Source of the DNA: a virus
IMG/VR virus record: IMGVR_UViG_3300045988_184219
DNA length: 64,000 bases
Strand: one strand, 5' to 3'
Positions 1,831 through 59,743 of the stretch are shown here, piece by piece. Every line of letters starts with the position of its first letter. The stretch's first letter is position 1. The position numbers and the translations under genes were made by a program. A model generated the notes under the pieces. That model ran no database searches. It saw nothing but the letters and a program-made list of their open reading frames with translations, and had not been told where the DNA came from.

Positions 1831-2385
1831 TCAGACCGTAATCTGAACCTCACGCGGGTCAAGGACACGAACACCATAAGAACTCATATCCATCTGAGCC
1901 CCAATTTTGTTCATATGGTCGATTACCTCCTCGGGAACGTAGCGGTACGTCCCACGCCGCATTTCGTTGCGACGCTTCACCTCCTCGATAGGGAGAAAGG
2001 TAAAATCGAGAATAACGACAATAGCACGTCCTTGCGTCTCCTCAAGGACGATACGCTTGATGTCCTTGATTGCGCGACCGTTCATAAACGTCGCGTCAAT
2101 AAAGGTTGCACCTACCGCATTACCGACCTTGCAGGAGAGGCGGGAACGCAAGCACTCATGTGTGAGTTCCCATGCACGCCGTGAGACATTCTGATTAATC
2201 TCGTAAGTAAACTCACCGTCTCTTGTCGTCTCGATAGGAGGTGACAACATAAGGCGAAATGCATCAGGAGAAATCACATAATCATCGCAATTATTGTTGC
2301 GAAGCCATGTGCTCTTTCCAGAACCCGGCAAGCCACGCATGAGGACAACCGTGGCAGAACGGAGAGAAATTGCATGCTTTTTCAT
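1831..2385 (-). CDS. P-loop NTPase, kinase-like (polynucleotide kinase / zeta-toxin-like fold)
   Basis: Walker A GLPGSGKST near N-terminus, ~180 aa single domain; SD GAAAGGATGA before ATG at 2385. Confidence 0.65.
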   Translation of the reverse strand: MKKHAISLRSATVVLMRGLPGSGKSTWLRNNNCDDYVISPDAFRLMLSPPIETTRDGEFTYEINQNVSRRAWELTHECLRSRLSCKVGNAVGATFIDATFMNGRAIKDIKRIVLEETQGRAIVVILDFTFLPIEEVKRRNEMRRGTYRYVPEEVIDHMNKIGAQMDMSSYGVRVLDPREVQITV

Positions 2386-4863: not shown

Positions 4864-6141
4864 TTAATCAGCACAATCCACAATCCGTTGAAGCACAAAA
4901 TCTGCACATGCTTGGCACATCCCATTCCCGAGTGCTTTATACCGCGCAGAATCGCTTCCACCTTCTGTCCATCCATCAGGGAGAGCTTGTAAACGTTCAC
5001 ACTCTAAAGGAGTAAGCCGCCTCACGATATTTCCAACCGCCTCAGAAGATAGAGAATCTACCACTAAACTCTCGCTTCCTCCACCATGATTTCCACCTGT
5101 CGCTCGAAGTGCTGCGCATTTATTCTCTGCATACTCACTGAATGACTGTGCGGCAAAAATCTTCGCTACAGCATGGCGGTCTATTGTGTTGAGTGTATAT
5201 GACTTTTCGGACATCACACCTGTACCATTCCCACCATTTTGTATCTGACGCTCTATAGTATTTCCTGCAATACAATAACTCTGAACAAGCGGTACTTGAT
5301 GACCACCTGTACCCATTCTTGCTGCCAAGGTAGGTGTAACCTTATTGCCTGAAACACGAACAACATCATTAGAATGTGCTATATCGTATATGACATCGAC
5401 TGTATCTCTAACTGACGTTTCAGAACCTCCGGAAGCACTCTCCCGCGCTCCTTTGCCCTGCGCAAGATTCCCGCACACGCTTTCGGACTCAAATAATGCT
5501 TTTGCGGCACATCTTCTGTCTTTTCCAAAATCTGCGATAAGGAAGATTCTCTTGCGTCGCTGGGGCACTCCCCAATATTGAGCATCGAGGATTCGCCACG
5601 CAATGTCACAGATTGGCAATTCCACCAATCCCGCGTCTGCCCATCGTGCATTGGGAGGTACTGGAAGCGAGGTTTCTCCGATTTCTTCGAGCACGGTGTG
5701 AAAGTCCATTCCCTTGTTGCTTGAGAAGGCGCCGGGGACGTTTTCCCACACGAAGAAACGAGGGTTTTTCCCGTTTGTCCTTCTTCTAAGTTCTCGAACA
5801 AGCTTAATTGCTTCGAGGAATAACCCACTTCGTACATCCTTTAATCCTCTCCTCTTTCCTGCGGTGGATAGTCCCTGACAAGGCGATCCTGAACACACTA
5901 TATCTACAGGTGGAAGTGTGTCTGGATCTATTTTTGTTATGTCTCCAAGTTGTGTAACATGGGGGAAGTGTTTTCGCGTAATAGACTCAGGAAATGGTTC
6001 TATTTCGCTAGACCAAAGGGGTTCTATACCCGCACGCGTTGAGGCGAGTAACCATCCACCTATTCCATCAAAAAAACTTCCTAGTGTTAAATGTTTTTTC
6101 AATTCTCTACCACCAATCTTTTCTTTTTTTGATTGTACCAT
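4864..6141 (-). CDS. DNA (cytosine-5)-methyltransferase
   Basis: Motif I FFDGIGGW, PCQ motif GSPCQG, ENV motif FVWENVPG, QRRKR, C-terminal LTPLECERLQALPDGWT. Start set at ATG 6141 (MVQSKKEK); longer ORF to 6210 runs into a terminator hairpin. Confidence 0.85.
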   Translation of the reverse strand: MVQSKKEKIGGRELKKHLTLGSFFDGIGGWLLASTRAGIEPLWSSEIEPFPESITRKHFPHVTQLGDITKIDPDTLPPVDIVCSGSPCQGLSTAGKRRGLKDVRSGLFLEAIKLVRELRRRTNGKNPRFFVWENVPGAFSSNKGMDFHTVLEEIGETSLPVPPNARWADAGLVELPICDIAWRILDAQYWGVPQRRKRIFLIADFGKDRRCAAKALFESESVCGNLAQGKGARESASGGSETSVRDTVDVIYDIAHSNDVVRVSGNKVTPTLAARMGTGGHQVPLVQSYCIAGNTIERQIQNGGNGTGVMSEKSYTLNTIDRHAVAKIFAAQSFSEYAENKCAALRATGGNHGGGSESLVVDSLSSEAVGNIVRRLTPLECERLQALPDGWTEGGSDSARYKALGNGMCQACADFVLQRIVDCAD

Positions 6142-6187
6142 TTTAGATAGACCAAAGGAAAAGACGGTAAGGAACTTTTTACCACAT

Positions 6188-6358
6188 ACGAAAAGAGCGC
6201 CCCTAGTCATCAGGACGCTCTCTCCGCGAGTTGTTAGTTGGTTTTAGAAAGGAGGATTCGCAACGGTGTTCCCCCGCCGCCCATTCTGCCACCATATCTA
6301 GCCGCTTGGCGACGGGGCACCGTTTGAGCCGTTCTGGGGTTCCGAACTCCCCTCGGCT
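6188..6358 (-). ncRNA. candidate small ncRNA cassette with 16S-3'-end-like tail (GGGGGAACACCGUUGCGAAUCCUCCUUUCUAAAACC) before terminator
   Basis: ORF-free GC-rich segment bounded by promoter-box variant TTTACTATTATAC (6361-6373) and hairpin+U-tract at 6196-6235; paralog at 32810..33005. Confidence 0.45.
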
Positions 6359-15663: not shown

Positions 15664-15770
15664 TTTGTTTATGTCCTTTCTTCAATGTCGATTGCTAATA
15701 CTTAATGGTTTAATTATAAGCCAAAAGAAGCGGTCAGAGAGGATGTTTCCACTCCAACCGCCCATTTTTT

Positions 15771-16891: not shown

Positions 16892-17129
16892 TATTTTCAA
16901 CCTTCTTTCTAAGCAACAATACATTTAATCAATCCTCACAACAAAATGCCGAGGAATCCCCGTCCTTTAGACGTGGGGTATGTGACCAAAGCCATCTTTT
17001 CTTAGCTCAACCAACTGACAATTAAATTATATAACTTTTAGCAACAACACGAGCCATTTTCCACCACAAAACAAAACAATCGGTTTCAAATATCACTGTT
17101 TTGAAACCGATTGTTTTCATTTGGCTTAT

Positions 17130-17639
17130 TCAGCACTTCACAGCACCGACCACACGATTTCGTACAACACCATCGCTCTCGCCACCGTCAAGAGAAATAA
17201 TCGAATTAACGAAACGGTCAATCATTGCAATCGCATCTCGCACAGGAATCTTCTTCGAGAAGGATCGTCGCCCAAGACAATCCATCTCCACAAGTACATT
17301 CCCGTCCTTCACGATTCGAGCACTTACACCAACACCACCTGCAACGAAACGGTAGGACTGAAGATTGTCTTCAAGAGAGGTACGAAACGTAATCACGCGC
17401 CCATTGACAACAAAAGCGGCGATTGCCTCGTAAGAAGCGTCCTCAAAAACACCTAACACGGTCTGGATTGCAGATTGAACGTCGCCATCATGATCGTCGT
17501 CAACAAGGCAGATGTTTTTCTCGCCCTTGCGCCCAGCATAAGCCGTCAAATCACTACAAGGGATATTCTCGATTTGAGAACAGATTGCTTCACGAATTGC
17601 GTCCATTGTTTTCCTCCATTCTTCCATTGAACAACTCAA
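17130..17639 (-). CDS. paralog family E protein (169 aa)
   Basis: VNGRVITFRTSLEDNLQSYRFVAGG. Confidence 0.6.
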   Translation of the reverse strand: MSCSMEEWRKTMDAIREAICSQIENIPCSDLTAYAGRKGEKNICLVDDDHDGDVQSAIQTVLGVFEDASYEAIAAFVVNGRVITFRTSLEDNLQSYRFVAGGVGVSARIVKDGNVLVEMDCLGRRSFSKKIPVRDAIAMIDRFVNSIISLDGGESDGVVRNRVVGAVKC

Positions 17640-17782
17640 CCGATGTGTTTATTATACAGCTTTTTATGGGATGATGAACATATTTTCACTACAAACGCAA
17701 AAGAAAATAAGCGGTACAACCATGTGTATTGAGTGCACCTCTGCTCGCTATTCTTTCCATTTGGTCTATCAAAACACTTAAA

Positions 17783-18256
17783 TCATTTAAAAACCCCTTT
17801 GATGCTATCAATATCCATATAAAACACACGAACAACCATGTCCTCCACAAAAGCCTTTATCCACCTAGCAACTTTTTCTGCTGGCACATTGGAACCAGCA
17901 AAAAATACATCTGTGTCTTTTGCGACATCAACATTTGCGACATCATTACCCTGTGGTTGAATGGACATGTGGATTCCTTTACAGGAAACCGTATACGTTT
18001 CAGACACATTAAAAACAAACCGTCGAAGCGTTACAGATCGCCCATTGACATCAAGAGTTACCATCCACTCAAAACCATCGTCAGAGAGGATTTCTGTCGC
18101 CTTTTCAAGATAGTCAGAAAGAGAGACATTTTCGTTTCGTGTGTTGATGATAGGAGTCATCATCTTATCCCTCCGCGCCGCAAAGATAGACGCAGAATTA
18201 AATGGGAGATGTGTGGCTTGAGCAAGGATCATGTTATGGATAGCGTTTTTGTACAT
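17783..18256 (-). CDS. paralog family E protein (157 aa)
   Basis: VNGRSVTLRRFVFNVSETYTVSCKG. Confidence 0.6.
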   Translation of the reverse strand: MYKNAIHNMILAQATHLPFNSASIFAARRDKMMTPIINTRNENVSLSDYLEKATEILSDDGFEWMVTLDVNGRSVTLRRFVFNVSETYTVSCKGIHMSIQPQGNDVANVDVAKDTDVFFAGSNVPAEKVARWIKAFVEDMVVRVFYMDIDSIKGVFK

Positions 18257-18349
18257 AGGAGAATCATCCTTTCTATAACTCCTCTTTAATTATAACGAAA
18301 AGCACAAGAAAAGGTGGTACATTTCTGCACCACCCAAAATAAAATATAT

Positions 18350-18850
18350 TTAATCGAAAAGTTTAGCAATCGCTTCAATGTCTTTGAAATCGCCACTTTG
18401 ACGTATTTCTTGAAGAAAACTACTCAGCAGTACACTTGCGTATTGCTCTGGCATGATGGCGGTACGAAGAGGGTCAATATTGTCGATAATATCCTTAATT
18501 TCGATAACACCCTCTTTGTTAAACAAAGAAACAAGTGCTTTACCATCGTCGTGAGGTTGAATAAGGAGATAAATAGACTTGCACGAGATCAAGAAAGATT
18601 CAGGTACGCGGAAGTGAAGATGTTGGAAAGAAACAGTGTTTTTATTATCTGTGATTGCAACAAGCCACTCAAGATCTTTGTTTGAGACTGTTTTTAAAAC
18701 TTTCTCGATAAATTCTGTCGCTTTAAGAGATTCAGGATAACCAGTAACAACGGGCTCAATCATTCCATCAATAGGACAAGAAAAGACGGCGAGGAGGTCA
18801 AAGGGAGACTGAGAGATGATGTTGTAGGTGGTCTGGTAGATAGGAGACAT
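18350..18850 (-). CDS. paralog family E protein (166 aa)
   Basis: DNKNTVSFQHLHFRVPESFLISCKS. Confidence 0.6.
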   Translation of the reverse strand: MSPIYQTTYNIISQSPFDLLAVFSCPIDGMIEPVVTGYPESLKATEFIEKVLKTVSNKDLEWLVAITDNKNTVSFQHLHFRVPESFLISCKSIYLLIQPHDDGKALVSLFNKEGVIEIKDIIDNIDPLRTAIMPEQYASVLLSSFLQEIRQSGDFKDIEAIAKLFD

Positions 18851-19759: not shown

Positions 19760-20656
19760 TTAGCTCTGAGAATAAGGAATCGTCTCATCACTGACAACAA
19801 ACGTCAGTTCATCTCCATCCGCATAAGTGCGGTTGATAACATAGCCGTTCAAAATTCTTCCTGAACTACCATCTGTGTGGTTCACAAAAGAGATCTCGTT
19901 GGGAGCTTTGTCATCATACGAGAACGAAAGGTTTGTAAAATCGGTTGGTGACTTAGCCCCACACATACGCGCTACCCACGCATTGTTAACCGCATCAGGG
20001 ACAAGTTCACCATAGTAGTCCTCACGAAGATCAGGGTACGGCTCAAGCTCAGGGCGAACCTTTCCGCCGACATAACTCATCTCATCGCGCATAGCATACG
20101 GGGACGGGTACTTGAATACCTTAGAGCCGTCCGCAGACACATAACTCTCAATCCCAGTCACACACTTAGCGACCGTGCCACCGTTCTCATCCTCACTCAC
20201 GTCGAGATCAAAGTTGCAAATCTCTCGCGGATCAGTCACAACAAGGTTGTCATGAGAGGCAAGATCGAGATGAAGGTCAAACTTGCAGAACGACTCCTTA
20301 TTGCCAGCGGCGAGACACTTGGAGGTAGTTTCCGCAACATTGGAGCACTTTCCATTCTCGCATACTTTCACATCGCCGAATGCAACGACTTCCATGTCTG
20401 CATCAGCCTTCTTCATCTTGTCCTTGTAACTCTGGCTAATGCGGTCAGCGGAATACTCACACGTTCCATCACAAACGTAAGGCTTTGCGTTCTTCGCGGG
20501 GCGCTTGTACTTTCCGTTGATATGATGTTCAACCTCAAGTTCAGCCGCCTTTTCAAAAGCGGTATCTGTGGATGTGCCAGAGGAGGCAAAGCTCACACTT
20601 GTTCCACCAATAACGATAAGACTTGCTACGGCGAAAGACTTCATAATGTTTTTCAT
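19760..20656 (-). CDS. secreted cysteine-rich protein (299 aa, signal peptide)
   Basis: N-term MKNIMKSFAVASLIVIGGTSVSFASSG after SD AAAGAAAGGAAG; multiple Cys pairs; hairpin terminator 19720-19755. Confidence 0.6.
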   Translation of the reverse strand: MKNIMKSFAVASLIVIGGTSVSFASSGTSTDTAFEKAAELEVEHHINGKYKRPAKNAKPYVCDGTCEYSADRISQSYKDKMKKADADMEVVAFGDVKVCENGKCSNVAETTSKCLAAGNKESFCKFDLHLDLASHDNLVVTDPREICNFDLDVSEDENGGTVAKCVTGIESYVSADGSKVFKYPSPYAMRDEMSYVGGKVRPELEPYPDLREDYYGELVPDAVNNAWVARMCGAKSPTDFTNLSFSYDDKAPNEISFVNHTDGSSGRILNGYVINRTYADGDELTFVVSDETIPYSQS

Positions 20657-20731
20657 CTTGAGCATCTTCCTTTCTTTTAACAGCTCGTTCAACATGATAA
20701 GTATAGCACTTTTTAGAGAAACGTGTTTGAT

Positions 20732-21719: not shown

Positions 21720-22076
21720 TTACTTGCGATGGGAATGAGAGATTACCTCATCCAACATAATTACAAGCCAGTCAGGTTTGTTCGTCAGCCTATTGGTCAA
21801 GTGTTCAAGAGAGGCCACTTGTTGCGGGGAGGAAAGTGTGTGATGTTTAACAATCAGAGTTAGCCCACGAACGAGAGCTGTGAGACGTTCGTGGGGAGGC
21901 TTATGCGATTGGACGTTATTGATAAGTGTATCAATTTGCTCGTTGACAAGTTTTTGTTGTTCAACCTGCCAAGTCGCAACCTCTCGTTGAGCGTCAGCAA
22001 GATGACGGCTTTTGGATATGTTTGGGGTTTTCAAAGAGAACACCTTCTTTTTGGCGATGGGTTTCAATCCGCGCAC
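21720..22076 (-). CDS. doubtful ORF (118 aa, no ATG start, no SD), runs into the CRISPR-like repeat
   Basis: Only a GTG start inside the repeat; no cassette. Confidence 0.2.
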   Translation of the reverse strand: MRGLKPIAKKKVFSLKTPNISKSRHLADAQREVATWQVEQQKLVNEQIDTLINNVQSHKPPHERLTALVRGLTLIVKHHTLSSPQQVASLEHLTNRLTNKPDWLVIMLDEVISHSHRK

Positions 22077-22092
22077 CTACAATAGGTACGAT
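22061..22092 (-). repeat. solitary CRISPR-like repeat unit (type I-C-like): minus strand ATCGTACCTATTGTAGGTGCGCGGATTGAAAC
   Basis: Same GCGGATTGAAAC handle and a compensated hairpin as at 7675 and 62075-62270. Confidence 0.5.
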
Positions 22093-22433
22093 GGCAACAC
22101 ATAGAAAGATTCGCCCGTTCCGAGTGCCTTCCACTCCACACAGATCACAAAATCGACGTATTTTAGGGAATCTATTCCCACTATCGCATCCTTGCGACCC
22201 TTCTCGATGAGAGGAAACGAGTCGATTTTATGTTCACTTGAGGTTCACACTCAGACGTTTTCTTTGGCATATCCAACGATTATTTGTGTCGCGGTTGTAA
22301 ATTTTCGGTCGTCCGCGCAAAACGACCTTCTTTTGACCAAATTCACGTCACCCAACCAAACGCCGGGTTCGACCTTACCACACAATCAATCCTCTCACCA
22401 CACCTTTCCTTTAGGCTATCAACAAGACTTCAT
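22093..22433 (-). other. conserved ~330-nt leader-like element (copy 2 of 3)
   Basis: GGCAACACATAG ... CGCATCCTTGCGACC ... GCGGTTGTAAATTTTCGGTCG ... shared with 7707..8044 and 62271..62602. Confidence 0.5.
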
Positions 22434-22529
22434 TTACAGAAAGTGTAACACATATTAAAAATTATTGTTCTGCAAAAAGAAAAACACCTGTCAAGCAAGT
22501 GTTTTTCAAGGAAGAGATTTGAGAAAGAA

Positions 22530-23099: not shown

Positions 23100-23520
23100 A
23101 CCCACTCATTATTATAAAGGTGAGCTATCTTTCCGTTTCATTAATCAAGCTGTTTTATATCAACCAACCATCCTTTTCGTCTTTCCAAGTTCATCATACT
23201 GCTCCACCCAATTCTTCAAATGAGCATCCGCAACAGAGAGAGACACGGACGGATAGCGACGAATACAGTTGCCATTCTTATAATATCGCACTTGAACTCC
23301 CCACGACTCTCATCGCGGGATTCTCGGGTCGTTCGCAACTTAGACACCTTCTCACCGCAAATGAGACGTTGATCCAGTGCCCAGAGGTCGCGAAAAATTA
23401 CCGAGCTATCCCCGTCGTCCCAACGGTTCGGTAAGGCGAAAAGTTCGTTGATAAGCCAAAGGATTAGGCGGATTTGTCGCGAAACTTTTCATCGAGTTCT
23501 ACGAGGAGCCGAAGCCCTTC
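23100..23520 (-). ncRNA. candidate TnpB guide RNA (omega/reRNA) region: 3' end of tnpB plus downstream right end
   Basis: ~400 nt ORF-poor segment downstream of tnpB where IS605-family elements encode their guide RNA; not verified structurally. Confidence 0.3.
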
Positions 23521-24621
23521 GCAGAGAATATTCTGTGCCGCGTTGAGGTCGCGGTCGTGATGATGCCCACACTTCGGGCAGATCCACTCACGCACGCTGA
23601 GTTCCTTGACGGCGGGGTTTTTGAAGCCGCAATTTCCGCAGGTCTGCGAGGAGGCGTAGAACCTGTCCACAGTGAGGAGAACGCGTCCGCGCCAGAGAGA
23701 CTTGTATTCGAGCTGTCGTCTAAGTTCACCCCACGAGGAATCCGCGATGTGACGGGCGAGACAGTGATTCTTTATCATCCCGCTCACGTTGAGGTCTTCA
23801 ATGAAGATAACCCCGTACTTTTTTGTGACAAAGTTCGTTAATTTATGAAGGTAGTCCTCTCGTTGTGCCGCAATTTTTGCGTTCAGCCGTGCCACCTTGA
23901 CCCGAGCCTTCTCGCGACGCGCACTCGACTTTGATTTTCGGTCGAACGAGCGTTGCAGAAATTTCAGGCGATTTAAGGAGGTATTGAGCGGCTTGAGCGC
24001 GTCAAACTGCGTGCCATCGGAGAGGATTGCGAGGTCTTTGATGCCAAGGTCGATGCCGACAGGATCTTCATTGTGCTCCAACACAGGCGCAGGAACGTCG
24101 GTTGCGCAGATCGAAATGTAGTACCGCCCGTCTGGTTCGATACGCACGGTCGCACTGAGGATTCTGCCCTCTGGAATGAGGTTCTTCCCTCCGCGAATCC
24201 GCACCCTGCCGAGCTTCGGAAGCTTGATATGCGTCCCCTCAAACGCGATGTTGTTATTCGTGAAATTCGTCCGATAACTCTGATAGTTGTCGCGTTTGGA
24301 CTTGAAGCGTGGATAACCAAACTTCCTCTTGCGCGACGAGTTGACCGTTCCAAAGAAATTATCATAGGCTTTATCGAGATCGCGAAGGGCGTTCTGTAAC
24401 GCACATTTATCGGGTTCGAGGAGGAACGGGAGTTCACGTTTGAGGTCGGTCAGCCGTTTGCTACACGCGTTGTAACCGAGCGTTTTCTTCGTTTCCGCGT
24501 ATGTGTCGATTCGGAGTCGAAGAAAATAATTGTAAATAAATCGTTTACACCCGAACGTCTTTTTAATCAAGTCACGTTGCTTTGCGTTCGGGTAGGCACG
24601 GTACACGTACCCCTTTTCCAT
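23464..24621 (-). CDS. tnpB: IS200/IS605-family TnpB (RNA-guided RuvC nuclease, OrfB)
   Basis: RuvC-I GIDLGIKD, RuvC-II IFIEDLN, zinc finger CGNCG...CPKCG, RuvC-III RDLNAAQNI; 385 aa; no tnpA. Confidence 0.85.
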   Translation of the reverse strand: MEKGYVYRAYPNAKQRDLIKKTFGCKRFIYNYFLRLRIDTYAETKKTLGYNACSKRLTDLKRELPFLLEPDKCALQNALRDLDKAYDNFFGTVNSSRKRKFGYPRFKSKRDNYQSYRTNFTNNNIAFEGTHIKLPKLGRVRIRGGKNLIPEGRILSATVRIEPDGRYYISICATDVPAPVLEHNEDPVGIDLGIKDLAILSDGTQFDALKPLNTSLNRLKFLQRSFDRKSKSSARREKARVKVARLNAKIAAQREDYLHKLTNFVTKKYGVIFIEDLNVSGMIKNHCLARHIADSSWGELRRQLEYKSLWRGRVLLTVDRFYASSQTCGNCGFKNPAVKELSVREWICPKCGHHHDRDLNAAQNILCEGLRLLVELDEKFRDKSA

Positions 24622-24725
24622 TTGGTCAATCCACCTCCTTTTATCTCAAAACTTCATTGTTATTATAACATTTTCTCTATCGAAAATCTACCGATTTTCG
24701 AAGACTTTCCTTTTTACCCGCTATC

Positions 24726-24760
24726 CAACGACTGAGGTCACGGGTGTGCGCGGGGGATTT
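24726..24760. repeat. GC-rich 35-nt element (copy 2) in the tnpB 5' leader
   Basis: CAACGACTGAGGTCACGGGTGTGCGCGGGGGATTT, near-identical to 18969..19004. Confidence 0.5.
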
Positions 24761-24810
24761 AATCAAAGGTATACAGCTTACTTGTGTGTTTATTATATAG
24801 CTTTTTAAGT

Positions 24811-27735: not shown

Positions 27736-28359
27736 ATGGAAGATGGCACAAACAAAACAACAGTTTTAACAAAAGAAGAATGTATAAAACTTAGAAAAGA
27801 ATTGCTAGGGGAAGAAGAAATAAATTTTCAAACATTTATTAAAAGCCGTTTAACCGAATTAAACCTACAACAAAAACACCTAGCAGATATGTGCAACGTA
27901 AGCGATAAGACAATTTCTAAGTGGTGTTCTGGAAGGGGGCTTCCCGACATAATGATGATTCCTGTTTTGGCAGAGACATTAGATGTTTCAATACATGCGA
28001 TTACAAACTCCATTTTTGGAATTCGAGATTATTATACGGTTGATGATTTAACTTCGAGAGCTATTTTAGATGGAGTGATAAAAGAAAAGAACGAATTTCC
28101 TGATGCAGATTGTATAGCGGGAGCTTTTATTGGAAAAAGTGAATATAACCTATATTTACTCTTAAAACACATATATAAAACAAATGGTGTAGAATATACG
28201 ATTAACGATTTTCTCAAAAGTGATGAGTTTCGTCGGATTTGTTCAATTAAGCGTATAGCAGTATTGCAAAAGGTGTTCATGTGGTTCCAGAACGTCAAGA
28301 TCTATAATTGGGATAAAGAAAGAGATTTTGAGTTTAGAAAAGAGGTTAAAGTAAAATGA
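27736..28359 (+). CDS. XRE-family helix-turn-helix transcriptional regulator (207 aa)
   Basis: HTH LTELNLQQKHLADMCNVSDKTISKWCSG; low-GC codon usage unlike its neighbours; opposite strand. Confidence 0.7.
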   Translation: MEDGTNKTTVLTKEECIKLRKELLGEEEINFQTFIKSRLTELNLQQKHLADMCNVSDKTISKWCSGRGLPDIMMIPVLAETLDVSIHAITNSIFGIRDYYTVDDLTSRAILDGVIKEKNEFPDADCIAGAFIGKSEYNLYLLLKHIYKTNGVEYTINDFLKSDEFRRICSIKRIAVLQKVFMWFQNVKIYNWDKERDFEFRKEVKVK

Positions 28360-28667
28360 AGTTAGTAGGAAATGAACAAGACGTTCTTTTTTTACAAGAC
28401 GTACATCAGTTATTGTTATCAAAACATAAAGACGATATAGAAAAATTATTATTTATAAGTGGCTGGAAAGAAACACAGATAAAAGTATTTCTTTATTTGT
28501 TAAAGTCTATTTGTTTCGAGATAAATGAAAAAGAGTTGTCTTTACTATTTGGTGTATATGATAGAAGATCAGGGGGAGCACTATCCTTTCGAGGTGACAA
28601 CGGGGGGTATCATTGGGATGTCATGTCTCAAGAAAATGTAAAAAGTTGTTTAACTAAATTGATGTGA
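28356..28667 (+). CDS. hypothetical protein (103 aa), co-transcribed with the XRE regulator
   Basis: 4-nt overlap with upstream stop; same low-GC composition. Confidence 0.55.
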   Translation: MKLVGNEQDVLFLQDVHQLLLSKHKDDIEKLLFISGWKETQIKVFLYLLKSICFEINEKELSLLFGVYDRRSGGALSFRGDNGGYHWDVMSQENVKSCLTKLM

Positions 28668-30160: not shown

Positions 30161-30222
30161 TTATTTTTGGAAACAAAAAAAGAAGCCCTAAACAGGACTT
30201 CTTTTTCTTTTGTATCATCCGA

Positions 30223-30699
30223 TTAGTAGAGACACATCTGTTCCGCAGACTCCACCTTCTCAGACTCAACCGCCACCTTGTCAGGGTTCTCCCCACGTAG
30301 CTCGGCACGAACACGCATGAGGATCTTCCCCAACATATTCTTTCCGTAACCTTTGTAGACCCCCCAGTAGATGTCACCCCAATCGTTTCCCTCAACGAGC
30401 TCCTCATCGCCTGTAGCGAGAAGTTTCTGAGCGAGGTCGGGGTGTTGATCAAATTTTGCTCGCACAACATCAAGCATCACTTGATCTTTAACCTGCTCCC
30501 AGTCAGAACGCAACCGCACTCGCCGACCGAGCCTCTTTGCCTCAGATGGGTTCAATTTCGTGAACTCACCTGAGCGGACGGGGCACTTCTCGGAGTGGAA
30601 GGCCGCCTCTGTGTTTGTGAATGTGAGAAACCCGTGCTTGACAGGTACGGAATAGAAGTTGGAAAGGAAATAATACTTTCCTCGAAATTCGTTGATCAT
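30223..30699 (-). CDS. NADAR (YbiA/DUF1768) family protein
   Basis: Hallmarks YYFLSNFY, EAAFHSEKC, DWGDIYWGV, GKNMLGKILMRVRAEL; 158 aa. Confidence 0.75.
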   Translation of the reverse strand: MINEFRGKYYFLSNFYSVPVKHGFLTFTNTEAAFHSEKCPVRSGEFTKLNPSEAKRLGRRVRLRSDWEQVKDQVMLDVVRAKFDQHPDLAQKLLATGDEELVEGNDWGDIYWGVYKGYGKNMLGKILMRVRAELRGENPDKVAVESEKVESAEQMCLY

Positions 30700-31384
30700 A
30701 AAACCATCCTTTCTGAATCAAGAAAACGAACTCGATATATTTATTATATAACAAGGATGGATAGAAAGAAAGATAAACGCCTAGAGGAAGCGAGAAGAAA
30801 AGGGAGGAAGAGAGGAAAAACAGATGTTAAAGAAAACAAAAACTGCGCACCGTTATTTATCGGTACGCAGTTTTCGCGAGTTGGTTTATGTTCCTCGTCA
30901 TTTGACAAGGTAGAAAGGAGGCTTATTTATGCGGAGGGGTCGCTAACAGAAAGGATACGAAACCGTAACAACCAGTTCTCCGCCTGTACCATCGTGCCAT
31001 TACGACCACATGCGCAACTGCTCGGTACAGTTTCTATTATAATCATTGAAAGAGAAGGTATTTGGAGTTTTAATTTTAGATGTGTTTTTTGTTTTCAAAA
31101 CGAAAAAACGCCCCGTGACCATTCGGGACGTTTTTTCTGAGTTGTGTCAACCTATTGCCCACTATGAGCAAGCAGAAAGGAGGATCGAGAAGAGCGGCCA
31201 TTGCCCATCTCGATACACATATATTCTACCACAAACAAAAAAGTTTGTGGAGATATTTTCACAAGACAAGCAAAATTTTCTTTTATATCCGACAAAAACG
31301 ACACCAAACGAGAAAGCCTCAACCTCACGCTAGATGCCGCCGTTTCCTTTGGTTTATCAAATAAGATTAATTCATAAAAGAAAC

Positions 31385-32338
31385 TTACTTAATCAAATCA
31401 GCTCCAACGATAATCCCATTACCACCAACAATCTTAGGAAGCTCACCATTCCACTTTTCAATTCGTCTCTGCTCAATAACGCTCTGTGTCAAAGACTGTT
31501 GTAGCTTATAGTTCGCGGCCGACTGACCGTCAGCCTGAATGATAAGCGCATCCGACTCACCTTTTGCCTTAATCCGCGCAGTCTCAGCTTCAACTTCTGC
31601 CCGCTCCTTCTCGATCTTCGAGCGTTCAAGTTCATTTTGTGCGTTGACAACATTTTGAATTGCCTGAGCCGTCGCCTCGTCAGGGACAACATCCGAGAGG
31701 TTGAACGTCTCAATCACGATTCCGTAAGGCAATAAACTATCACGAAATTTTTCAAAGATTTTTGTATTAACATCAGGACGCTTATCTCCAACAAGTTCCA
31801 TAAGAGAATATTGAGATGTCACGTTGTTGACAGCCTCATACATTGAGTTTTTCATATACCCCGATTCAATCAACTCTATTTTCTGTCCTCGGAACTTCTC
31901 AAACACACGCGGGAGTGTTTCTACATCCATGTGATACGAGTAAGTGATAGAGACGTTGACCTGCTTACCATCTTTGGTGTTGACGTTAATCGAGCGATCT
32001 GTTTTCTCTGTCTCATTCCCCTTGGTATAGTAGACGGTCTCTGTCGAAATCGGATAGGAGGTTACGTGCTTCCAAGGCGCAACAAGGTGAAATCCCTGCG
32101 CCAAAGTTTCTCCCTCAATCCCTCCATCCATGTTGTACACAACTCCTGCGTAACCGGGGTTGATACGACACGTACAAGTGAACAAGACTATTACACCTAG
32201 GAGTAGGGCGACAGTCACACCTATGATTCCTGCCGCACGAGACTTCAACGCTACGATTTCAGTAGAGAGATGTTCTTTAGAGTTTGATGGAGTGAAATTA
32301 GAGTTATTTTTGTTACCGAATATCATCTTGAATATCAT
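31385..32338 (-). CDS. SPFH/band-7 (prohibitin/HflK-like) membrane protein (318 aa; start at MIFKMIFG)
   Basis: N-terminal TM IIGVTVALLLGVIVLF, SPFH core, Ala/Glu-rich coiled coil ERAEVEAETARIKAKGESDALIIQADGQSAANYK. Confidence 0.7.
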   Translation of the reverse strand: MIFKMIFGNKNNSNFTPSNSKEHLSTEIVALKSRAAGIIGVTVALLLGVIVLFTCTCRINPGYAGVVYNMDGGIEGETLAQGFHLVAPWKHVTSYPISTETVYYTKGNETEKTDRSINVNTKDGKQVNVSITYSYHMDVETLPRVFEKFRGQKIELIESGYMKNSMYEAVNNVTSQYSLMELVGDKRPDVNTKIFEKFRDSLLPYGIVIETFNLSDVVPDEATAQAIQNVVNAQNELERSKIEKERAEVEAETARIKAKGESDALIIQADGQSAANYKLQQSLTQSVIEQRRIEKWNGELPKIVGGNGIIVGADLIK

Positions 32339-36499: not shown

Positions 36500-37232
36500 T
36501 AAAAAATGAAAACGCCCTGCGACAAGCACAGGACGTTCTCTCGAACACTTTCCACACAATAAGTCACGGGATCATCCCCCTCGGGATTCAACGGCAACTC
36601 ATTGTACTGCAACCACCGATGTTCACACGGCTGGTATCATCATCCTCGCGCCCCACAACGAGGAAACCACAAGATTTTGGGGCAATATTTGACGGCACTC
36701 GCACCACCTCTAGCCACGCGTGATTTGCAGTTACGAGCGACTTGTCGGGACGTATCTTCGCGGCGGGGTCAACGGGTGTTATGCCCTCTCCCACCATCCA
36801 GTCCACCATCCACTCCTCTTGTGCGTGGTTAGCCGTCATGAGGTCTTTGCGACGTAATGTATGTTATCAGCCGTAGTTTAGGGAGATTGCACTCCGAATC
36901 AGTCTATCACATCGGACGTTTACCCGCCATCATGGTTGCTTCTCCTCTCTAGGTCTTTCAAGCTCTTTTTTCAAAGTAGGGCTGTTTCCCGCTTATCCGA
37001 ATTCTCGCGAAGCCCTTATATCACCCGCCGCACCCCACCATCGGAGTACGTCTAGCACGCGGGGATTTTAACATTGTTTAGGCGGTCGAGGTTGCTCGCG
37101 GAGGTCGATTTCCACGTCCTCGGGAGAGACTCTCAACAGGTGTCTAGCGTTCCTCATGTGCGCCGCTTTAGCTGCGCGGAGTTGCGTCAACCTGCCTGAG
37201 CCGCCTACCAACTTTTCGTCGGTGTCCCTCTC
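36500..37232 (-). ncRNA. candidate large (~730 nt) structured ncRNA, copy 2
   Basis: Paralog of 6436..7155: shared blocks GGTTAGCCGTCATGAGGTCTTTGCGACGTAAT and GTCTAGCACGCGGGGATTTTAACATTGTTTAGGCGG; promoter box 37238-37250; terminator 36510-36545. Confidence 0.5.
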
Positions 37233-37365
37233 GATGGTTTTATTATAGCAGGTTCAAACGAGAATGTGGAGAATTTTTGTTGAGTCGAAGGTTTTTCTTT
37301 TTCGAGAGAGGTGGGAGGTGTCGGGAACCAGTTTCTTTGGCTTATCCTATCCGACTTAACCGACT

Positions 37366-37825: not shown

Positions 37826-38419
37826 TTATCCATTCCGCTCATCCACTTCGTAAATCATTCGTCCATCTTCCGTATAGTCCATGTCCAACTCCTCAAGGTG
37901 CGCCCGAATAGATTCGTCCGAGAAATATTCTTTTGCCTTCTCCTTTACATATCCTTCTGCAAAGTGACCAATAAGGCTCATAATACCCGACACAACATCT
38001 TCCAGTGCGACCAAATCAATCTCTTTCATAGTAAGAGAACATTCGATTCGTCCAGAAGAAAAACCATCCATGTAGATAGCGTCTAAACCAAGAACGTCTC
38101 TCTCATCAAAACTGAACTGCACACGATCCTTGAGTTGCGAGCGAACAAAGTCCTTGAGATCATCTTCGTCTGTACTCTGCAACCGAACCATGACGGAAGG
38201 AATCGGATAATCGTCTTCAATCGACCAGCGGAACGCACTGAACATAGGTTCGATACGAAGAACACTGTATAAGAGTCGGAATCGCTCACATATCGCATCC
38301 TTCACATCAAGACTGATCTTATCAAGTACAGTATCAAGATACCAAACGGAGCGAAACGCTTCCATAATCGCCGTTTTCTGGGCGTCAGGAGAAAGATTTG
38401 TAAAGCTGATTTTCTGCAT
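37826..38419 (-). CDS. paralog family C protein (197 aa; start at MQKISFTNLS)
   Basis: SD GAAAGGAAGGAAAATC; N-term FTNLSPDAQKTAIMEAF; C-term HLEELDMDYTEDGRMIYEV. Confidence 0.65.
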   Translation of the reverse strand: MQKISFTNLSPDAQKTAIMEAFRSVWYLDTVLDKISLDVKDAICERFRLLYSVLRIEPMFSAFRWSIEDDYPIPSVMVRLQSTDEDDLKDFVRSQLKDRVQFSFDERDVLGLDAIYMDGFSSGRIECSLTMKEIDLVALEDVVSGIMSLIGHFAEGYVKEKAKEYFSDESIRAHLEELDMDYTEDGRMIYEVDERNG

Positions 38420-38481
38420 GATTTTCCTTCCTTTCAAAGAGAAAACGGCATATTTTCTTCTATATGCCGTTTCTCATAACC

Positions 38482-39054
38482 TCAAATTTCTTCTTCCGCA
38501 ATCATCCCATCTTCGTAGCACTCAAGATCATTGTTCGCAAGCCAACGTCCGACCTCATAATCAGAGAAATAGTGGTTGATTGCCCCCTGCGCCGCCCTCT
38601 GTGCGTGCTCGCCGATGCGTTTTATAATATGCACAAGTTCTGTTTCCATACGCTCAATAGTTGTGTCCGAGAGACCAGCATAAGCCGTAACCTCAACACC
38701 AACAACCCCGTCGATGTAGCGTATTTTGAGGCGTTGAACGAGCTTGAGTTCGGTCTCCGTAGGAACACCAAAGGAGTCCTTACGAAGTGAAACACCGAGC
38801 CACTGTGCGACGTTCGAGGAGTCGATAGTGACGTTTGCAATAACAAGCGGGTTGCCTTCTGCATCATAACCATCGAACATAGGGCGAACCGAGCTTGAAC
38901 CTTCAGGGAGGCAGAAGGTTTCGTCGATGTCGAGCTCTGCGTCTTGCCGTGCGCTGTCGAGACTCATATTAAGATACTCTGTGCGGTTGCGGAGAGAGTT
39001 CCATGCGATGATGCGCTCATTTGCGCCGAGTTCGCTGTAATTTACTACTTCCAT
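38482..39054 (-). CDS. paralog family C protein (190 aa)
   Basis: C-term WLANNDLECYEDGMIAEEEI. Confidence 0.65.
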   Translation of the reverse strand: MEVVNYSELGANERIIAWNSLRNRTEYLNMSLDSARQDAELDIDETFCLPEGSSSVRPMFDGYDAEGNPLVIANVTIDSSNVAQWLGVSLRKDSFGVPTETELKLVQRLKIRYIDGVVGVEVTAYAGLSDTTIERMETELVHIIKRIGEHAQRAAQGAINHYFSDYEVGRWLANNDLECYEDGMIAEEEI

Positions 39055-43476: not shown

Positions 43477-44823
43477 TCACGCGGACTCCCGACGAGGCGA
43501 GTCTGTTGGACGAGCAGCCAAACCAGCACAGGCGATCCTTGTCGGCGCTACCATAATCGGGCGTAGCACAACGCCCTCTATCCCGTCGGCAAACGCGTTC
43601 GGGACTACTTTTTTCACGATCTGCAACGCTCCGTTTACGTCCGCATTCACGCGTGTTCCGTCGTTTGAACGGAATAATCCTCGATGAATACGACGCTTTT
43701 TGTTGTAAAATTCGCGTGTCGGGGGCTCTCCGTCCAGAAATGATGTACCGCTCGTATAGCTTTCTTCTGTTACGACAACAGCTATACCATGTTCATACGC
43801 TTTGTACTCGATCATTTCTATCAATCGGGCGAACGGGAGTCCTACAAAATGCTGGTTCTCCTTCGCCGTGAACGGGGTGCGCTCCTTCCAGTCGCGGTTT
43901 AGACCAATGATAAGTGTCGGAATATTCTGTGCGACGAGGCGATCTACGATGAGGCGCGAGGTCTTGTGCAGGTAATCCTTGAGTTTTGCGTTCCTTTTGT
44001 CAATCAGGCGTTGGATTCTCCGCGTCACTTTCCTCCCATTGAGGTGCTCCGACATCTCACGGAGAGACGCCAAACGCTTGTTGTAGAACTGGTTGATCGA
44101 CTTCGGGATGCGACCGTTTACGATGATCGGAGCGTCCCCCGTGGAGAACGCCATCGTAACGAAGTTGTTTACGCCGAGGTCAATTCCTGCGTATCTCCCG
44201 TTGGGCTTTCTCTGAGGAACTTCCTTGATTCTGTAAACGATTTCAAGGGTGATGAACCCTCCGTGCGGGACAAATCGAACCTGTTGAAACGACTTTATTT
44301 CACGAGGGCTGTTAGTGTCCTCGCGGATGAACTGCGGCTCAACCGTGAACCCCTTGAAAACTTTTGGAAACACGATTTTTCCATCCCGAATTTTACACTC
44401 TTGACTCGTTAAAGTTAGAACGTGCTTTCCATCCTTCTTTAGAAAATGAGGCGGTTTCGGACGACCCTTATACTTTTCAGGGTGCTTTTTCCAATCTTTA
44501 AGTTCTTCCCAAAAACTTTTCCAGTCTGTCACGAGCAAGCGTAAATTCTGCTGTGCGCTCTGTGCCGTCGGCATGTTCCGATAGTCGGGAAAGTCCGTTT
44601 TCGACTTCAGGATTTTGTCAAGTTGTTCATAACTCGACTGTTTCTCGTGCGCGAAAAACTGTTGCCGAAGTAGATAATTCCCTTGATTATAAAGGTTTTT
44701 TGACATGTGACAAAACTCCGCGAGCATTTCATACGCGGGGTGAGTCTCCTTGATGATGTGTTGCTCCACGCGAACAAAGGGATCTTTCTTTTTCTTCGTT
44801 TTTGGCTTTTCTTCCGTTTTCAC
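43477..44823 (-). CDS. TnpB-derived protein lacking zinc finger and RuvC-II Glu (possible nuclease-dead, TldR-like)
   Basis: RuvC-I GIDLGVNN present, DYLHK block aligns with the intact TnpB, RuvC-II position reads IIGLN (no Glu), YTSGTSFLDG replaces the CxxC zinc finger, NADVNGALQI retained; ~200 aa N-terminal extension; standard cassette promoter at 44878-44900; only 67 nt to the next gene. Confidence 0.6.
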   Translation of the reverse strand: MKTEEKPKTKKKKDPFVRVEQHIIKETHPAYEMLAEFCHMSKNLYNQGNYLLRQQFFAHEKQSSYEQLDKILKSKTDFPDYRNMPTAQSAQQNLRLLVTDWKSFWEELKDWKKHPEKYKGRPKPPHFLKKDGKHVLTLTSQECKIRDGKIVFPKVFKGFTVEPQFIREDTNSPREIKSFQQVRFVPHGGFITLEIVYRIKEVPQRKPNGRYAGIDLGVNNFVTMAFSTGDAPIIVNGRIPKSINQFYNKRLASLREMSEHLNGRKVTRRIQRLIDKRNAKLKDYLHKTSRLIVDRLVAQNIPTLIIGLNRDWKERTPFTAKENQHFVGLPFARLIEMIEYKAYEHGIAVVVTEESYTSGTSFLDGEPPTREFYNKKRRIHRGLFRSNDGTRVNADVNGALQIVKKVVPNAFADGIEGVVLRPIMVAPTRIACAGLAARPTDSPRRESA

Positions 44824-50299: not shown

Positions 50300-50680
50300 T
50301 TAATAGTTCTCCACCACCAACCTTAACACGGATGACGGGATGTCCTTCGTGTAGATGAACGAGTAAATATCTTCGCTACCATCAAAAACAATATTTGGAT
50401 CAGCTTGAAGAATACTTTTGTCAATAGCATCCACATCCACCTCAAACACACAGATTCCACTCTCAAGCACACACTCGTCCACAAGATCAGCACACTCCGC
50501 AAACGAACCCGCTACGTCAACATCATCAGCGAGATAGATAACGCCACAACAATCCATCCCATTCCAATTCGGATTTCTACCAGTTTTCAGACCTTCCGAA
50601 AGGATGGAGTTTTTGTATACATCGTAGGAGGCGTGATAGAGCTTTTTGATGTGGGAAGGGAGGAAGGACTTTATAGACAT
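50300..50680 (-). CDS. hypothetical protein (126 aa), N-terminus weakly reminiscent of DarT/ART-like LYH[AF][ST]..N..SIL..GL
   Basis: KLYHASYDVYKNSILSEGLKTG; SD AAGAAGGGAATAATCC. Confidence 0.5.
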   Translation of the reverse strand: MSIKSFLPSHIKKLYHASYDVYKNSILSEGLKTGRNPNWNGMDCCGVIYLADDVDVAGSFAECADLVDECVLESGICVFEVDVDAIDKSILQADPNIVFDGSEDIYSFIYTKDIPSSVLRLVVENY

Positions 50681-50974
50681 TGGATTATTCCCTTCTTATG
50701 GGTGGTGGAGTATTTCGATAGATTTATTATATAACTTTTTAGAATCGCAGGTGGGTAATTCAGATTTAATTGGCGCAGATTTCCTCTGAAAGTCATTGTT
50801 TTCCTTTGGGCTATAAAAAGCAAAAGCGACACGCCGTCGTCCAAAAGCGTGTCGCCCGAAAGGAGTGTGCAAAACTAGAGTTAGTTCAGCGCAAATCAAT
50901 TATAACAAATTTTAAGAGCAGAAAACTCAAAAAGAGAAGATGGAAAATCCACCTTCTCCTTTTTTTAGACGAGA

Positions 50975-52459: not shown

Positions 52460-54193
52460 TCAAAACAACACATTGTTGTCAGAAACGAAATCTTCTTTCT
52501 TCTTCCCACCATTCCCTTTCTTCTTCGTTCTCACAGCCCCCAACGCAGGAGAAAGGAACTCTACCATCTTATCCAGAATCTTATCGCCTTGCTCCACATC
52601 AACACCTTCAATCGCCTCTTTGGTCGCTCCCGATTTAATATCAATCAACGCGGCAATCTCAACATCAATCGTATCTTTTGCGAGTAAGTACCACACATTA
52701 ACCGCATTACGTTGTCCAATACGGTATACACGATCTTCTGCCTGTTGCATATCAGCGGGGGTCCAGCCAAGCTCCAAAAACGCCACATTAGATGCCGCCG
52801 TAAGCGTAATTCCAGTAGAAGCAGCCTTTAGACCAAGAACCGCAAGCCTTACGTTCTCATCGTTTTGGAACTTCTCAACCACTCGTTGACGCTCCTCAGC
52901 GGAGGTTTCACCGGTGATGGACACAGCATCAGGGAACGCTTCGCAAAGCGATTCAATGACCTCAAGATGTGTCGCAAAGACAACGAGTTTTTCTCCACTT
53001 TCGAGAAACGTCGAAACCCACTCTTTCGCATCATCGAGCTTCTGCTTCGCGACGAGATTTTTTAAGACCTCAATCCGTACAAGCATCTCAGCCTTCATCG
53101 ACTTCTTAATCTCACGCTCGTCCTTTTGGAGATTCTCGCGGAGATAATCTTCAAGCTGTTTCTTTGCCTTCTCGTATTCTTTCATTTGAGGTTTTGTGAG
53201 TTCAAAGAACACCTGCGAGCGTGTTTTGTCAGGAAGGTCTTGAAGGACGGCTTTCTTGTCATGACGGATGTAACATAGCTCACGAAGCCGCGTGTTGAGT
53301 TCTTTGAGGTTCGCACTTCCAGAGATGTCCCATCCCCACGGCTTACGCTTTTTCGCACAATAACGATCGGTAAACCGATTCCACCCACCAAACTCATCGA
53401 ATCGAGAGATAACACGAAGCTGTTCAATGAGTTCTGCGGGACGGGAAAGGAGGGGTGTGCCTGAGAGGAGGAGAACGTAGTCGATTTCTTTGGCAAACGC
53501 CTTAACAATTTTAGTGCGTTTAGCGGTTCCGTTTTTGACATAGTGCGATTCGTCCAAAATCATAAAGCGGAACTTGATTTCGACAAGGTTCTTCGAGAGC
53601 TTCGTAAAAAGATCGTATGTAAGGACGACAACATCTGCGTTCACCGCATCGTTGACACTCTTTGCGTCCTTAATCACAACCACACGCACATCGTTCGGAA
53701 GCCACCTTTCCGCCTCTACCGCCCAATTATACTTAACAACCGCAGGGCAGATAATAATGGCAGGATAGTGCTGTGTCGCGTGGAGTGTTGCAAGAGCCTG
53801 TACCGTTTTACCGAGTCCCATCTCGTCGGCGAAAAAGAGGTGCTTCTTTTCGAGCGCATACGCAACAGACTCTCTCTGGAAGGGCATAAGTGTGCCATTG
53901 AGTGTGTCAAGGCGTTCCATCATTTTATTGATAGACGCGTTAGAGATTTTTGCTCGTTTTTCGGGTTTATCGAGCGTACGGGATTTGTTTATGTATTTCG
54001 AGAGTCCGAACTGTTTGTATGCGGTAGGAAAGACTTTTTTAATATTTTCTAGGACGGTGAGGGAGAACTCGTACTGCCAGCACTTGAGGTCGGGATTCCA
54101 ACGGCGTGTCGGGATGGACTTACAAGCGTCTTTATCAACATACTCCCCGTAGATACGGATTCCGAGTTTTGTAACTTCGATGTTTTTTATCAT
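52460..54193 (-). CDS. SNF2-family DNA/RNA helicase (577 aa)
   Basis: Motif I DEMGLGKT, motif II DESHYVKN, LLSGTP, helicase-C block GITLTAASNVAFLELGWTPADMQQAEDRVYRIGQ. Confidence 0.85.
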   Translation of the reverse strand: MIKNIEVTKLGIRIYGEYVDKDACKSIPTRRWNPDLKCWQYEFSLTVLENIKKVFPTAYKQFGLSKYINKSRTLDKPEKRAKISNASINKMMERLDTLNGTLMPFQRESVAYALEKKHLFFADEMGLGKTVQALATLHATQHYPAIIICPAVVKYNWAVEAERWLPNDVRVVVIKDAKSVNDAVNADVVVLTYDLFTKLSKNLVEIKFRFMILDESHYVKNGTAKRTKIVKAFAKEIDYVLLLSGTPLLSRPAELIEQLRVISRFDEFGGWNRFTDRYCAKKRKPWGWDISGSANLKELNTRLRELCYIRHDKKAVLQDLPDKTRSQVFFELTKPQMKEYEKAKKQLEDYLRENLQKDEREIKKSMKAEMLVRIEVLKNLVAKQKLDDAKEWVSTFLESGEKLVVFATHLEVIESLCEAFPDAVSITGETSAEERQRVVEKFQNDENVRLAVLGLKAASTGITLTAASNVAFLELGWTPADMQQAEDRVYRIGQRNAVNVWYLLAKDTIDVEIAALIDIKSGATKEAIEGVDVEQGDKILDKMVEFLSPALGAVRTKKKGNGGKKKEDFVSDNNVLF

Positions 54194-59592: not shown

Positions 59593-59743
59593 GTTGTTTT
59601 TCCTTTCTGATTGTTCAACAACTCAACCGATGGTTTTATTATATAACTTTTTTAGATAAGCCAAAGGGAGAAAATGACGGGAGAGTGGTTTTTCTTTCCA
59701 CCGACACATCCCGCCATCCGTTTGTTTCCTTTGGGCTATCAGC

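Follow-up and report, generated by a model that had tools for sequence, protein, structure and literature searches.

We analysed a stretch of 64,000 nucleotides from the virus record IMGVR_UViG_3300045988_184219 of the IMG/VR database (the whole stretch is called the window below), with a focus on three minus-strand genes that encode a NADAR-family protein, a cytosine-5 (C5) DNA methyltransferase and a small protein with an ADP-ribosyltransferase (ART) fold. Of the roughly 90 genes in the window, almost all lie on the minus strand; about 85% of the genes match nothing known and only about a dozen have a match in Pfam. The window appears to belong to a very long array of small accessory genes that run in one direction, about 40 of which stand behind a near-identical promoter box, and the three genes would be independent cassettes for enzymes acting on nucleic-acid modification. 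The original prediction, made from the letters alone, had taken them for one anti-defence set; this grouping did not survive, because the genes lie 20–46 kb apart, the NADAR and ART-like genes have promoter boxes of their own and the ART gene varies independently between strains. The joint explanation that we hold with moderate confidence is an array of a large mobile element that carries the NADAR, methylase and ART-fold genes as independent cassettes, each in the role assigned to it below. Coordinates are collected in Table 1.

The NADAR protein matched Pfam PF08719 with an E-value of 5.3e-27 (95.5 bits; cutoff, 35.1) and the phage family phrog_1017 at 1.5e-45, which bears out the family and the gene boundaries that had been proposed. 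A separate NCBIfam model named "NADAR family anti-phage protein" gave 51.6, far below its cutoff of 240. The best solved relatives were E. coli YbiA (2B3W, 2.7e-18) and the NADAR of P. nicotianae (Phytophthora; 8BAU, 4.3e-09). In the alignment, E31 and K38 correspond to the catalytic residues Glu43 and Lys50 of the Phytophthora protein (PMC11543638), and E103, within LVEGND, corresponds to its Glu125 and to the LVE of YbiA. In the set of the 120 closest relatives, all 113 whose sequence covers the N-terminus keep E31 and K38, and E103 was invariant (120/120). The residue at this third catalytic position is Glu in the YbiA subfamily, Asp in the DarT1-linked NADARs and His in the NADARs of T4-like phages (PMC11125620). 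Judged by these residues, the protein is a member of the YbiA subfamily with an intact Glu-Lys-Glu catalytic set. It also bears an acidic C-terminal tail of 20 residues. No ART gene adjoins the NADAR gene, and an ART profile picked out one open reading frame (ORF) in the whole window. Because the gene has its own promoter box and a hairpin and lacks an adjacent ART gene, it is an orphan.

The methylase ORF at its full length, 4864..6210(−), matched PF00145 at 5.9e-44; TIGR00675 scored 145.9 against a cutoff of 100.65, the best PADLOC model was that of an orphan methyltransferase (1.2e-86), and the closest solved enzyme was M.HhaI (7e-23). Motifs I, IV (PCQ), VI (ENV), VIII (QRR) and X (GNG) are intact. 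The likely start is the TTG at 6102, which is favoured because GGAGGG precedes it and because a 412-residue homologue is called in a related contig (L086); the ATG at 6141 is possible, and the additional N-terminal residues of the long ORF come from translating an intergenic repeat. None of the genes neighbouring the methylase showed a nuclease domain. The gene had been described as a Dcm-type methyltransferase, of which the C5 methylase part holds but the Dcm part does not: the Dcm model (NF007772/PRK10458) gave 26.4 bits against a cutoff of 710, and a Dcm orthologue was rejected. By its motifs, the protein is an intact, generic orphan C5 enzyme. Through methylation, it would most likely protect the DNA of its own element from cutting by restriction enzymes of the host, and an anti-defence role is plausible. 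In one related array (L098, 18050-20071), a 673-residue protein has a weak match to the restriction endonuclease family RE_NgoFVII; related arrays may carry nuclease genes too.

The third protein required a wider search. The ART-like ORF itself had no match in Pfam (E<=1), PHROGs, PADLOC or NCBIfam; its 19 close relatives are all metagenomic and none has a Pfam domain, and a PDB search with the profile of these close relatives returned nothing. A profile search of 1.84 billion representatives gave 582 related proteins at E<=0.001, mostly stand-alone proteins of 105–150 residues; some are fused within proteins of 250–1660 residues, and zeta-toxin-like kinase and IrrE-like peptidase domains are the fusion partners in large proteins. 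No Pfam or other database model covers this family, and one JGI record names a member "TPT1/KptA family". Structure prediction with the close relatives alone reached a predicted local distance difference test score (pLDDT) of 36 and worked with 81 diverse relatives from the profile search. The predicted structure has the split beta-sheet of the ART fold, and among known folds the NAD+ lobe of Tpt1/KptA comes nearest to it. The protein aligns solely to Tpt1 chain residues from about 93 onward, which make up the NAD+ lobe, and the family profile matches the start of this lobe (LYHGT..SI..GL) at about 1e-3. Weak but convergent family matches of the 81 members were to Tpt1/KptA (23), PARP (11), DUF7002 (7), exotoxin A (5), ART-PolyVal (2) and DarT (1).

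A resemblance of this protein to the DarT/ART signature had been suggested from its N-terminus. The ART resemblance is real at the level of the fold, but DarT/DUF4433 (PF14487) was rejected: the query had no match at E<=1, one of the 81 relatives matched at 0.067, and a profile search of the PDB reached DarT1 at E=0.7. Nor does the gene lie in a DarT-style operon with a DarG macrodomain or NADAR antitoxin, the NADAR gene being 20 kb off behind its own promoter box. The concern that 126 residues are short for a full ART fold was unfounded, because the chain of Arr has 140 residues. The 126-residue protein is an ART-fold NAD+ lobe, neither Tpt1 nor DarT, by its predicted structure and family profile.

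Invariant or nearly invariant in the family are Y15, H16, A17, T18, I26, G30, L31, A57, E62, I76, D94, N96 and Y110. The His on the first beta-strand, H16, is present in 81/81 relatives; position 49, the aromatic residue of the second strand, is Tyr in 65/81 and Phe in 8/81 (aromatic in about 90%); and the acidic residues E62 and D94 are kept in 73/81 and 80/81, respectively. The conservation of H16, E62, D94, N96 and Y110 argues for a conserved ligand or active site. The protein probably binds NAD+, and the most likely course is that it would then transfer ADP-ribose to, or hold it on, some target.

The ART-like gene is a strain-variable cassette: a related contig (L007) lacks the ART gene and has the genes to either side of it at 97% and 78% identity to those of the window, with a terminator shared at one bound of this insertion–deletion and a promoter box shared at the other. 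A tblastn search of the phage collection with the protein gave no match, and a scan of the GTDB species-representative genomes with the family gave nothing. Matches in BFVD were small uncharacterised proteins of large or jumbo phages (PaBG, PBS1, phage G, nt-1 and phiRSL1); the PaBG protein has 121 residues and is annotated as "putative RNA 2'-phosphotransferase", and phage G has seven paralogues. Five genomic contexts of distant members were inspected. One member is on a contig with T4 Gp23, one comes directly after a C5 methylase and near DpnD-PcfM, one is 30 nt downstream of an RlaP nucleotidyltransferase gene, one is on a phage contig with a clamp loader, and another is among unannotated small genes. 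The examined contexts are thus phage-like and conjugative-element-like regions of small genes, and none of the five has a NADAR or macrodomain neighbour. RlaP-family genes were also seen in related arrays (L080, 4928-6330; L008, 3092-4093; L098, 12096-13097; L010, 7538-8593); together with the PNK-like kinase at 1831-2385 of the window, they hint at a theme of RNA-end processing.

Table 1. Genes and sequence elements of the window that are discussed in the text (RBS, ribosome-binding site).
Feature	Position	Strand	Remarks
NADAR (YbiA-type), orphan	30223..30699	−	158 aa; PF08719 match; coordinates as originally predicted
Promoter-like box GTTATATAATAAA	30740..30752	−	41 nt upstream of NADAR ATG; RBS GAAAGGA follows; one of 41 same-strand copies
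Hairpin AGAAGTCC..GGGCTTCT with T-run, likely terminator	30172..30203 (approximate)	−	past NADAR stop; read from sequence; absent from consensus-scan list
Orphan C5 DNA methyltransferase	4864..6102	−	412 aa from TTG 6102; alternative ATG 6141; full ORF 4864..6210
Minimal ADP-ribosyltransferase-fold protein	50300..50680	−	126 aa; resembles Tpt1/KptA NAD+ lobe; N-terminus as originally predicted
Promoter-like box, same as at NADAR	50723..50735	−	43 nt upstream of ART-like ATG
SPFH/Band-7 gene	31385..32326	−	PF01145 8.1e-28; upstream neighbour of NADAR, 685 nt away
AAA_33/PNK-like kinase	1831..2385		Pfam, PHROG
SNF2-family helicase	52460..54193	−	PF00176 7.4e-36 and Helicase_C; phrog_62 2.6e-110
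Intergenic module: GATAGCCCAAAGGAAA, GC-rich hairpin, TTTTCTCCCTTTGGCTTATC, AAAAAAGTTATATAATAAA box	59593..59743	−	DNA fold
Further intergenic modules	54194-54452; 30705-30760		

The genes of the window are separated by recurring modules. A promoter-like box of the form AAAAAGTTATATAATAAA..ATCAAGAGTTGTTGAA..GAAAGGA..ATG was counted 41 times on the strand of the genes and 8 times on the opposite strand; most of the boxes precede a start codon by 9–60 nt, and both the NADAR gene and the ART-like gene carry a copy. For the 16-mer TTTCCTTTGGTCTATC, 58 occurrences, spread over both orientations, compare with 0.86 expected. In the sense of the genes it is found just upstream of the box, and in antisense just past stop codons, and its arms bracket GC-rich hairpins with a T-tract. 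About half of the boxes follow a stem-loop and T-tract, and many of the bracketed hairpins combine variable stems with a conserved AAAGAAAAC loop. Taken together, the sequences preceding the boxes did not exceed random 70-mers in stability (p=0.58). A reading of the inverted 16-mers as single-stranded-DNA promoters or attC-like sites was set aside, as their arms bracket ordinary T-tract hairpins directly upstream of the box. Solitary repeats had been suspected of being a mini-CRISPR; Tandem Repeats Finder returned tiny repeats only, no CRISPR-like array was found, and this idea was abandoned, the dispersed repeats being the promoter/terminator modules. Such an arrangement recalls PeSL elements, the composite promoter-terminator modules in the hyperplastic regions of T4-type phages (PMC2839356, PMC4122927), and from its sequence the array looks like a very large hyperplastic region of the PeSL type.

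At least 11 groups of paralogues were found in the window, two of them with seven members each. The two seven-member families consist of ORFans of about 160–200 residues (14629-18850; 37826-39054, 45698-46189, 48425-49045 and 55897-58652). One of these families is a tandem run, and several other groups share an N-terminal motif of the type F.F.EL...A...A. The ORFans of the paralogue families had no match in Pfam, nor in the phage and plasmid collections where these were searched. The array can be regarded as a natural library of strain-variable accessory genes, convenient for anti-defence screening. Besides the genes in Table 1, Pfam matches identified a DUF4314 protein, an HTH-transposase-like protein, an XRE-type helix-turn-helix (HTH) regulator on the plus strand and two TnpB proteins. 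The SNF2 helicase that had been cited as a further sign of a defence island is confirmed as a gene; against the defence-system models of PADLOC and NCBIfam, it scored far below all cutoffs.

Proteins of the window were found in metagenome assemblies only, on contigs that cluster at 317–323 kb and reach 393–423 kb. A relative was found in IMG/VR, where a search for the exact DNA of the window was negative, and the GTDB species representatives contain none. A GTDB scan with TnpB gave matches of at most 54% identity in Clostridia and other taxa, which is a weak hint at the host. No match was obtained when 24 kb were compared by megablast with the phage and plasmid collections or when 14 concatenated ORFan proteins were compared with them by tblastn. 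The array runs past both ends of the window, and an outward walk along related contigs met only more array. We infer that the window probably comes from a large mobile element of the human gut that has not been cultivated, with a jumbo phage as the best guess and a host among the Bacillota. A replication-type locus with the same insertion sequence (IS) family was observed on the contigs L089-L091 (40–256 kb); it encodes a DnaE-like Pol III alpha, an SbcCD-like pair, ThyA, NrdD, a T2SSE ATPase and a cysteine desulfurase, and the best relatives of its polymerase are "Bacteriophage sp." records from human faeces at 40–45% identity.

Around the NADAR gene, the SPFH/Band-7 and NADAR genes keep their order in the related contigs L001 and L002; in the latter, an inserted TnpB gene separates them. 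Just downstream of the NADAR block, the stretch 27736-28667(+) contains the sole clear plus-strand genes, an XRE/RstR-like HTH regulator of 207 residues and an overlapping ORF of 103 residues, and is the lowest in GC content of the window (0.35). This stretch may have been inserted recently or may serve as a regulatory switch.

Several non-coding elements and mobile genes were also noted. Two GC-rich, ORF-free segments of about 440 nt, at 6725-7165(−) and 36815-37250(−), are about 90% identical, and a TATAAT box of its own precedes each. The fold predicted for the RNA, at −149.7 kcal/mol, greatly exceeds shuffled sequences in stability (z=−4.3; 0/100 shuffles as good); Rfam gave no match, and the segments are candidates for a structured non-coding RNA. 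Another non-coding element, of about 330–380 nt, is present on the minus strand in three copies that are 72–83% identical (7660-8060, 22046-22448 and 62250-62626); the copies share 110 predicted pairs, mostly kept by one-sided changes and in 3 cases by compensatory ones, and Rfam had no match. Neither of the two genes for TnpB (IS605-family OrfB), at 23291-24767 and 43477-44823(−), is accompanied by TnpA. The first lies in an element of about 1.48 kb, of which a copy with 88% nucleotide identity is present in another genomic setting among further gut contigs (L090); as many as three copies were seen within 20 kb of array in related contigs (L098). Finally, the gene at 19760-20695(−) encodes a Cys-rich protein of 311 residues (298 in relatives) with an N-terminal signal or transmembrane segment and no family match, the sole obviously exported protein of the window.

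What the NADAR enzyme would do can be judged from its studied relatives. NADAR enzymes undo the ADP-ribosylation of guanine by DarT1 and ScARP and not that of thymine by DarT2 (PMC11543638, PMC11125620), so that the statement in the original prediction that they reverse DarT-type ADP-ribosylation holds for guanine and fails for thymine. Guanine ADP-ribose was hydrolysed in vitro by all tested branches of the family, YbiA included (PMC11125620), and orphan NADARs of phages neutralise DarTG1, as shown for AdfN (T4 gp30.3, Bas32 and Bas60; PMC11825919). Most likely, the NADAR of the window would hydrolyse ADP-ribose from guanine bases and so repair the DNA of the element when a DNA ADP-ribosyltransferase of the host, for instance DarT1, has attacked it. 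By analogy with AdfN, and because its active site is intact and its gene is an orphan, this role is the likeliest function, and an anti-defence reading is plausible.

Several results speak against parts of the overall explanation, and we set them out together here. The sigma-70 scan missed the promoter boxes, which have no canonical −35 element. Capsid, terminase, relaxase and type IV secretion system genes were found in none of the loci that carry array genes. The replication-type locus shares with the window only insertion sequences (88% nucleotide identity) and has a lower GC content (0.39 against 0.44 for the array); therefore it cannot be tied to the element of the window. In the ART-fold protein, E80, at the position expected for the catalytic Glu, is conserved in 34/81 relatives only (42%), and the protein lacks the N-terminal winged-helix RNA lobe that provides 3 of the 4 essential residues (Arg-His-Arg-Arg) of Tpt1 (PMC6333775). 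As for NADAR, the YbiA-type branch is regarded as mostly housekeeping (PMC11825919), E. coli YbiA removed guanine ADP-ribose in vitro but did not rescue cells from DarT1 or YarT (PMC11125620), and the window protein passes, if marginally, the NCBIfam model TIGR02464 for an N-glycosidase of riboflavin biosynthesis intermediates (74.9 bits; cutoff, 73.7).

The YbiA-type identity keeps alive a housekeeping-type role, in which the NADAR protein would be an auxiliary metabolic N-glycosidase acting on reactive intermediates of the riboflavin pathway or on another small molecule, with no part in defence. The TIGR02464 match, the best solved relative being E. coli YbiA, the housekeeping status of YbiA-like NADARs and the JGI name of the protein, "ribA/ribD-fused uncharacterized protein", all agree with this, but the TIGR02464 score barely exceeds its cutoff, no riboflavin genes were found in the window, the gene stands alone within the accessory array of a mobile element, and the YbiA branch hydrolyses guanine ADP-ribose in vitro like every other tested; we consider such a role rather unlikely. 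For the ART-fold protein, the missing RNA lobe and the poorly conserved E80 mean that it may be a binder instead of an enzyme. A catalytically inert sponge for NAD+ or an ADP-ribose-derived molecule, or a decoy, would suit these features and a bare NAD+ lobe that has no target-recognition domain; however, the strict H16 and the near-strict E62, D94, N96 and Y110 fit a catalytic site equally well as a binding site, and we are doubtful of complete inertness.

A host-takeover or RNA-directed factor in place of an anti-defence one, which would ADP-ribosylate host RNA polymerase or the translation apparatus (compare T4 Alt, ModA and ModB) or perform Tpt1-like chemistry on the phosphate ends of RNA or DNA in RNA repair, is unlikely as well. 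In its favour, the closest fold is that of the Tpt1/KptA NAD+ lobe, KptA ADP-ribosylates the 5'-phosphate ends of nucleic acids (PMC12678800), an RlaP gene lies 30 nt upstream of a distant relative, RlaP genes recur in the array of the element, and the window has its PNK-like AAA_33 kinase. Against these stand the absence of the lobe whose Arg-His-Arg recognises phosphate in Tpt1 (PMC6333775), the adjacency to RlaP in only one of the five contexts, and no RNA ligase having been found in the window. It is attractive to pair the protein with NADAR as writer and eraser, the former ADP-ribosylating nucleic acid (host DNA or RNA, or the DNA of the element) and the latter serving in trans as eraser or antitoxin, like a split YarT-YbiA. 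A small ART with an H-Y-E set and a YbiA-family NADAR have been shown by experiment to be a toxin-antitoxin pair (PMC11125620), and the two genes share the promoter box and co-occur in the window and in the related 256-kb contig L002. Yet they are 20 kb apart in the window and 7 kb apart in L002, never adjacent; one strain that is syntenic apart from this lacks the ART cassette; the IMG/VR relative, over the 31 kb covered, contains the ART-like gene and no NADAR; and the five contexts of distant members show no such neighbours. Because of this separation, the independent behaviour of the cassette and its contexts elsewhere, the pairing is disfavoured, and we regard it as very improbable. The view that the NAD+-lobe-only relatives of Tpt1/KptA are a new effector class of mobile elements that depends on NAD+, with members that ADP-ribosylate nucleic-acid ends or host immune components or soak up ADP-ribose-derived immune signals, and here perhaps form a dispersed writer-eraser system with NADAR, is speculative and in our judgement quite improbable. 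Our preferred explanation keeps the three genes as independent cassettes, of which the ART-fold protein may have an anti-defence role.

The NADAR, the methylase and the ART-fold protein are each of an already known kind, so that the findings are useful rather than striking. Orphan NADARs as counter-defence enzymes of phages have been shown only recently, and an enzyme of the YbiA type with that function on a large gut element would widen this role to the supposed housekeeping branch. The parts most worth further work are the very large PeSL-like array and the unnamed NAD+-lobe-only family, of which no member has been characterised so far; once a biochemical function is assigned to one of them, hundreds of genes would gain an annotation.

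Compared with known systems, the NADAR gene resembles AdfN in that it stands alone without an adjacent cognate ART toxin among the small accessory genes of what is likely a mobile element, and its product has no DarG1 N-terminal extension and keeps the catalytic Glu and Lys; it differs in its third catalytic residue, which is Glu here and His in T4-like AdfN (PMC11125620). The same study places a single phage NADAR at a distant relation to the YbiA group. With E. coli YbiA (2B3W) and TIGR02464 it has in common a bare YbiA domain of about 150 residues, the Glu-Lys-Glu set and the best sequence match, but it lies on an accessory array instead of in a chromosomal LexA-controlled or riboflavin context and has the acidic tail. 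In YarT-YbiA (PMC11125620), too, one replicon has both a NADAR of the YbiA family and a small ART-fold protein of the ARTD type, whereas the window genes are neither adjacent nor in one operon and the ART fold is nearest to Tpt1, not to the HYD1/Rhs clade.

The ART-fold protein is about 80 residues shorter than DarT1/DarT2 and has no adjoining DarG or NADAR partner. From Tpt1/KptA (PDB 9LD3, 6E3A), with which it shares the NAD+ lobe fold and the LYHGT..SI..GL motif, it differs in having no RNA lobe and in scoring below the threshold of Pfam PF01885. To Arr, the rifampin ADP-ribosyltransferase, no relationship was detected at the sequence level, and the gene has no antibiotic-resistance context. 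The methylase agrees with the orphan C5 methyltransferases of phages and plasmids in its full motif set, its lack of a cognate nuclease and its best PADLOC match, and it differs from them in nothing notable. The array exceeds the PeSL regions by far in scale, with 41 boxes in 64 kb and array genes past both window ends, and has another motif sequence; those regions belong to T4-type phage genomes, and around this array no virion or conjugation gene was reached. Like them, however, it repeats a module of stem-loop and early-type promoter between small ORFan genes, and gene-sized insertions and deletions between strains are bounded by these modules, as is seen for the ART cassette, whose indel ends at boxes.

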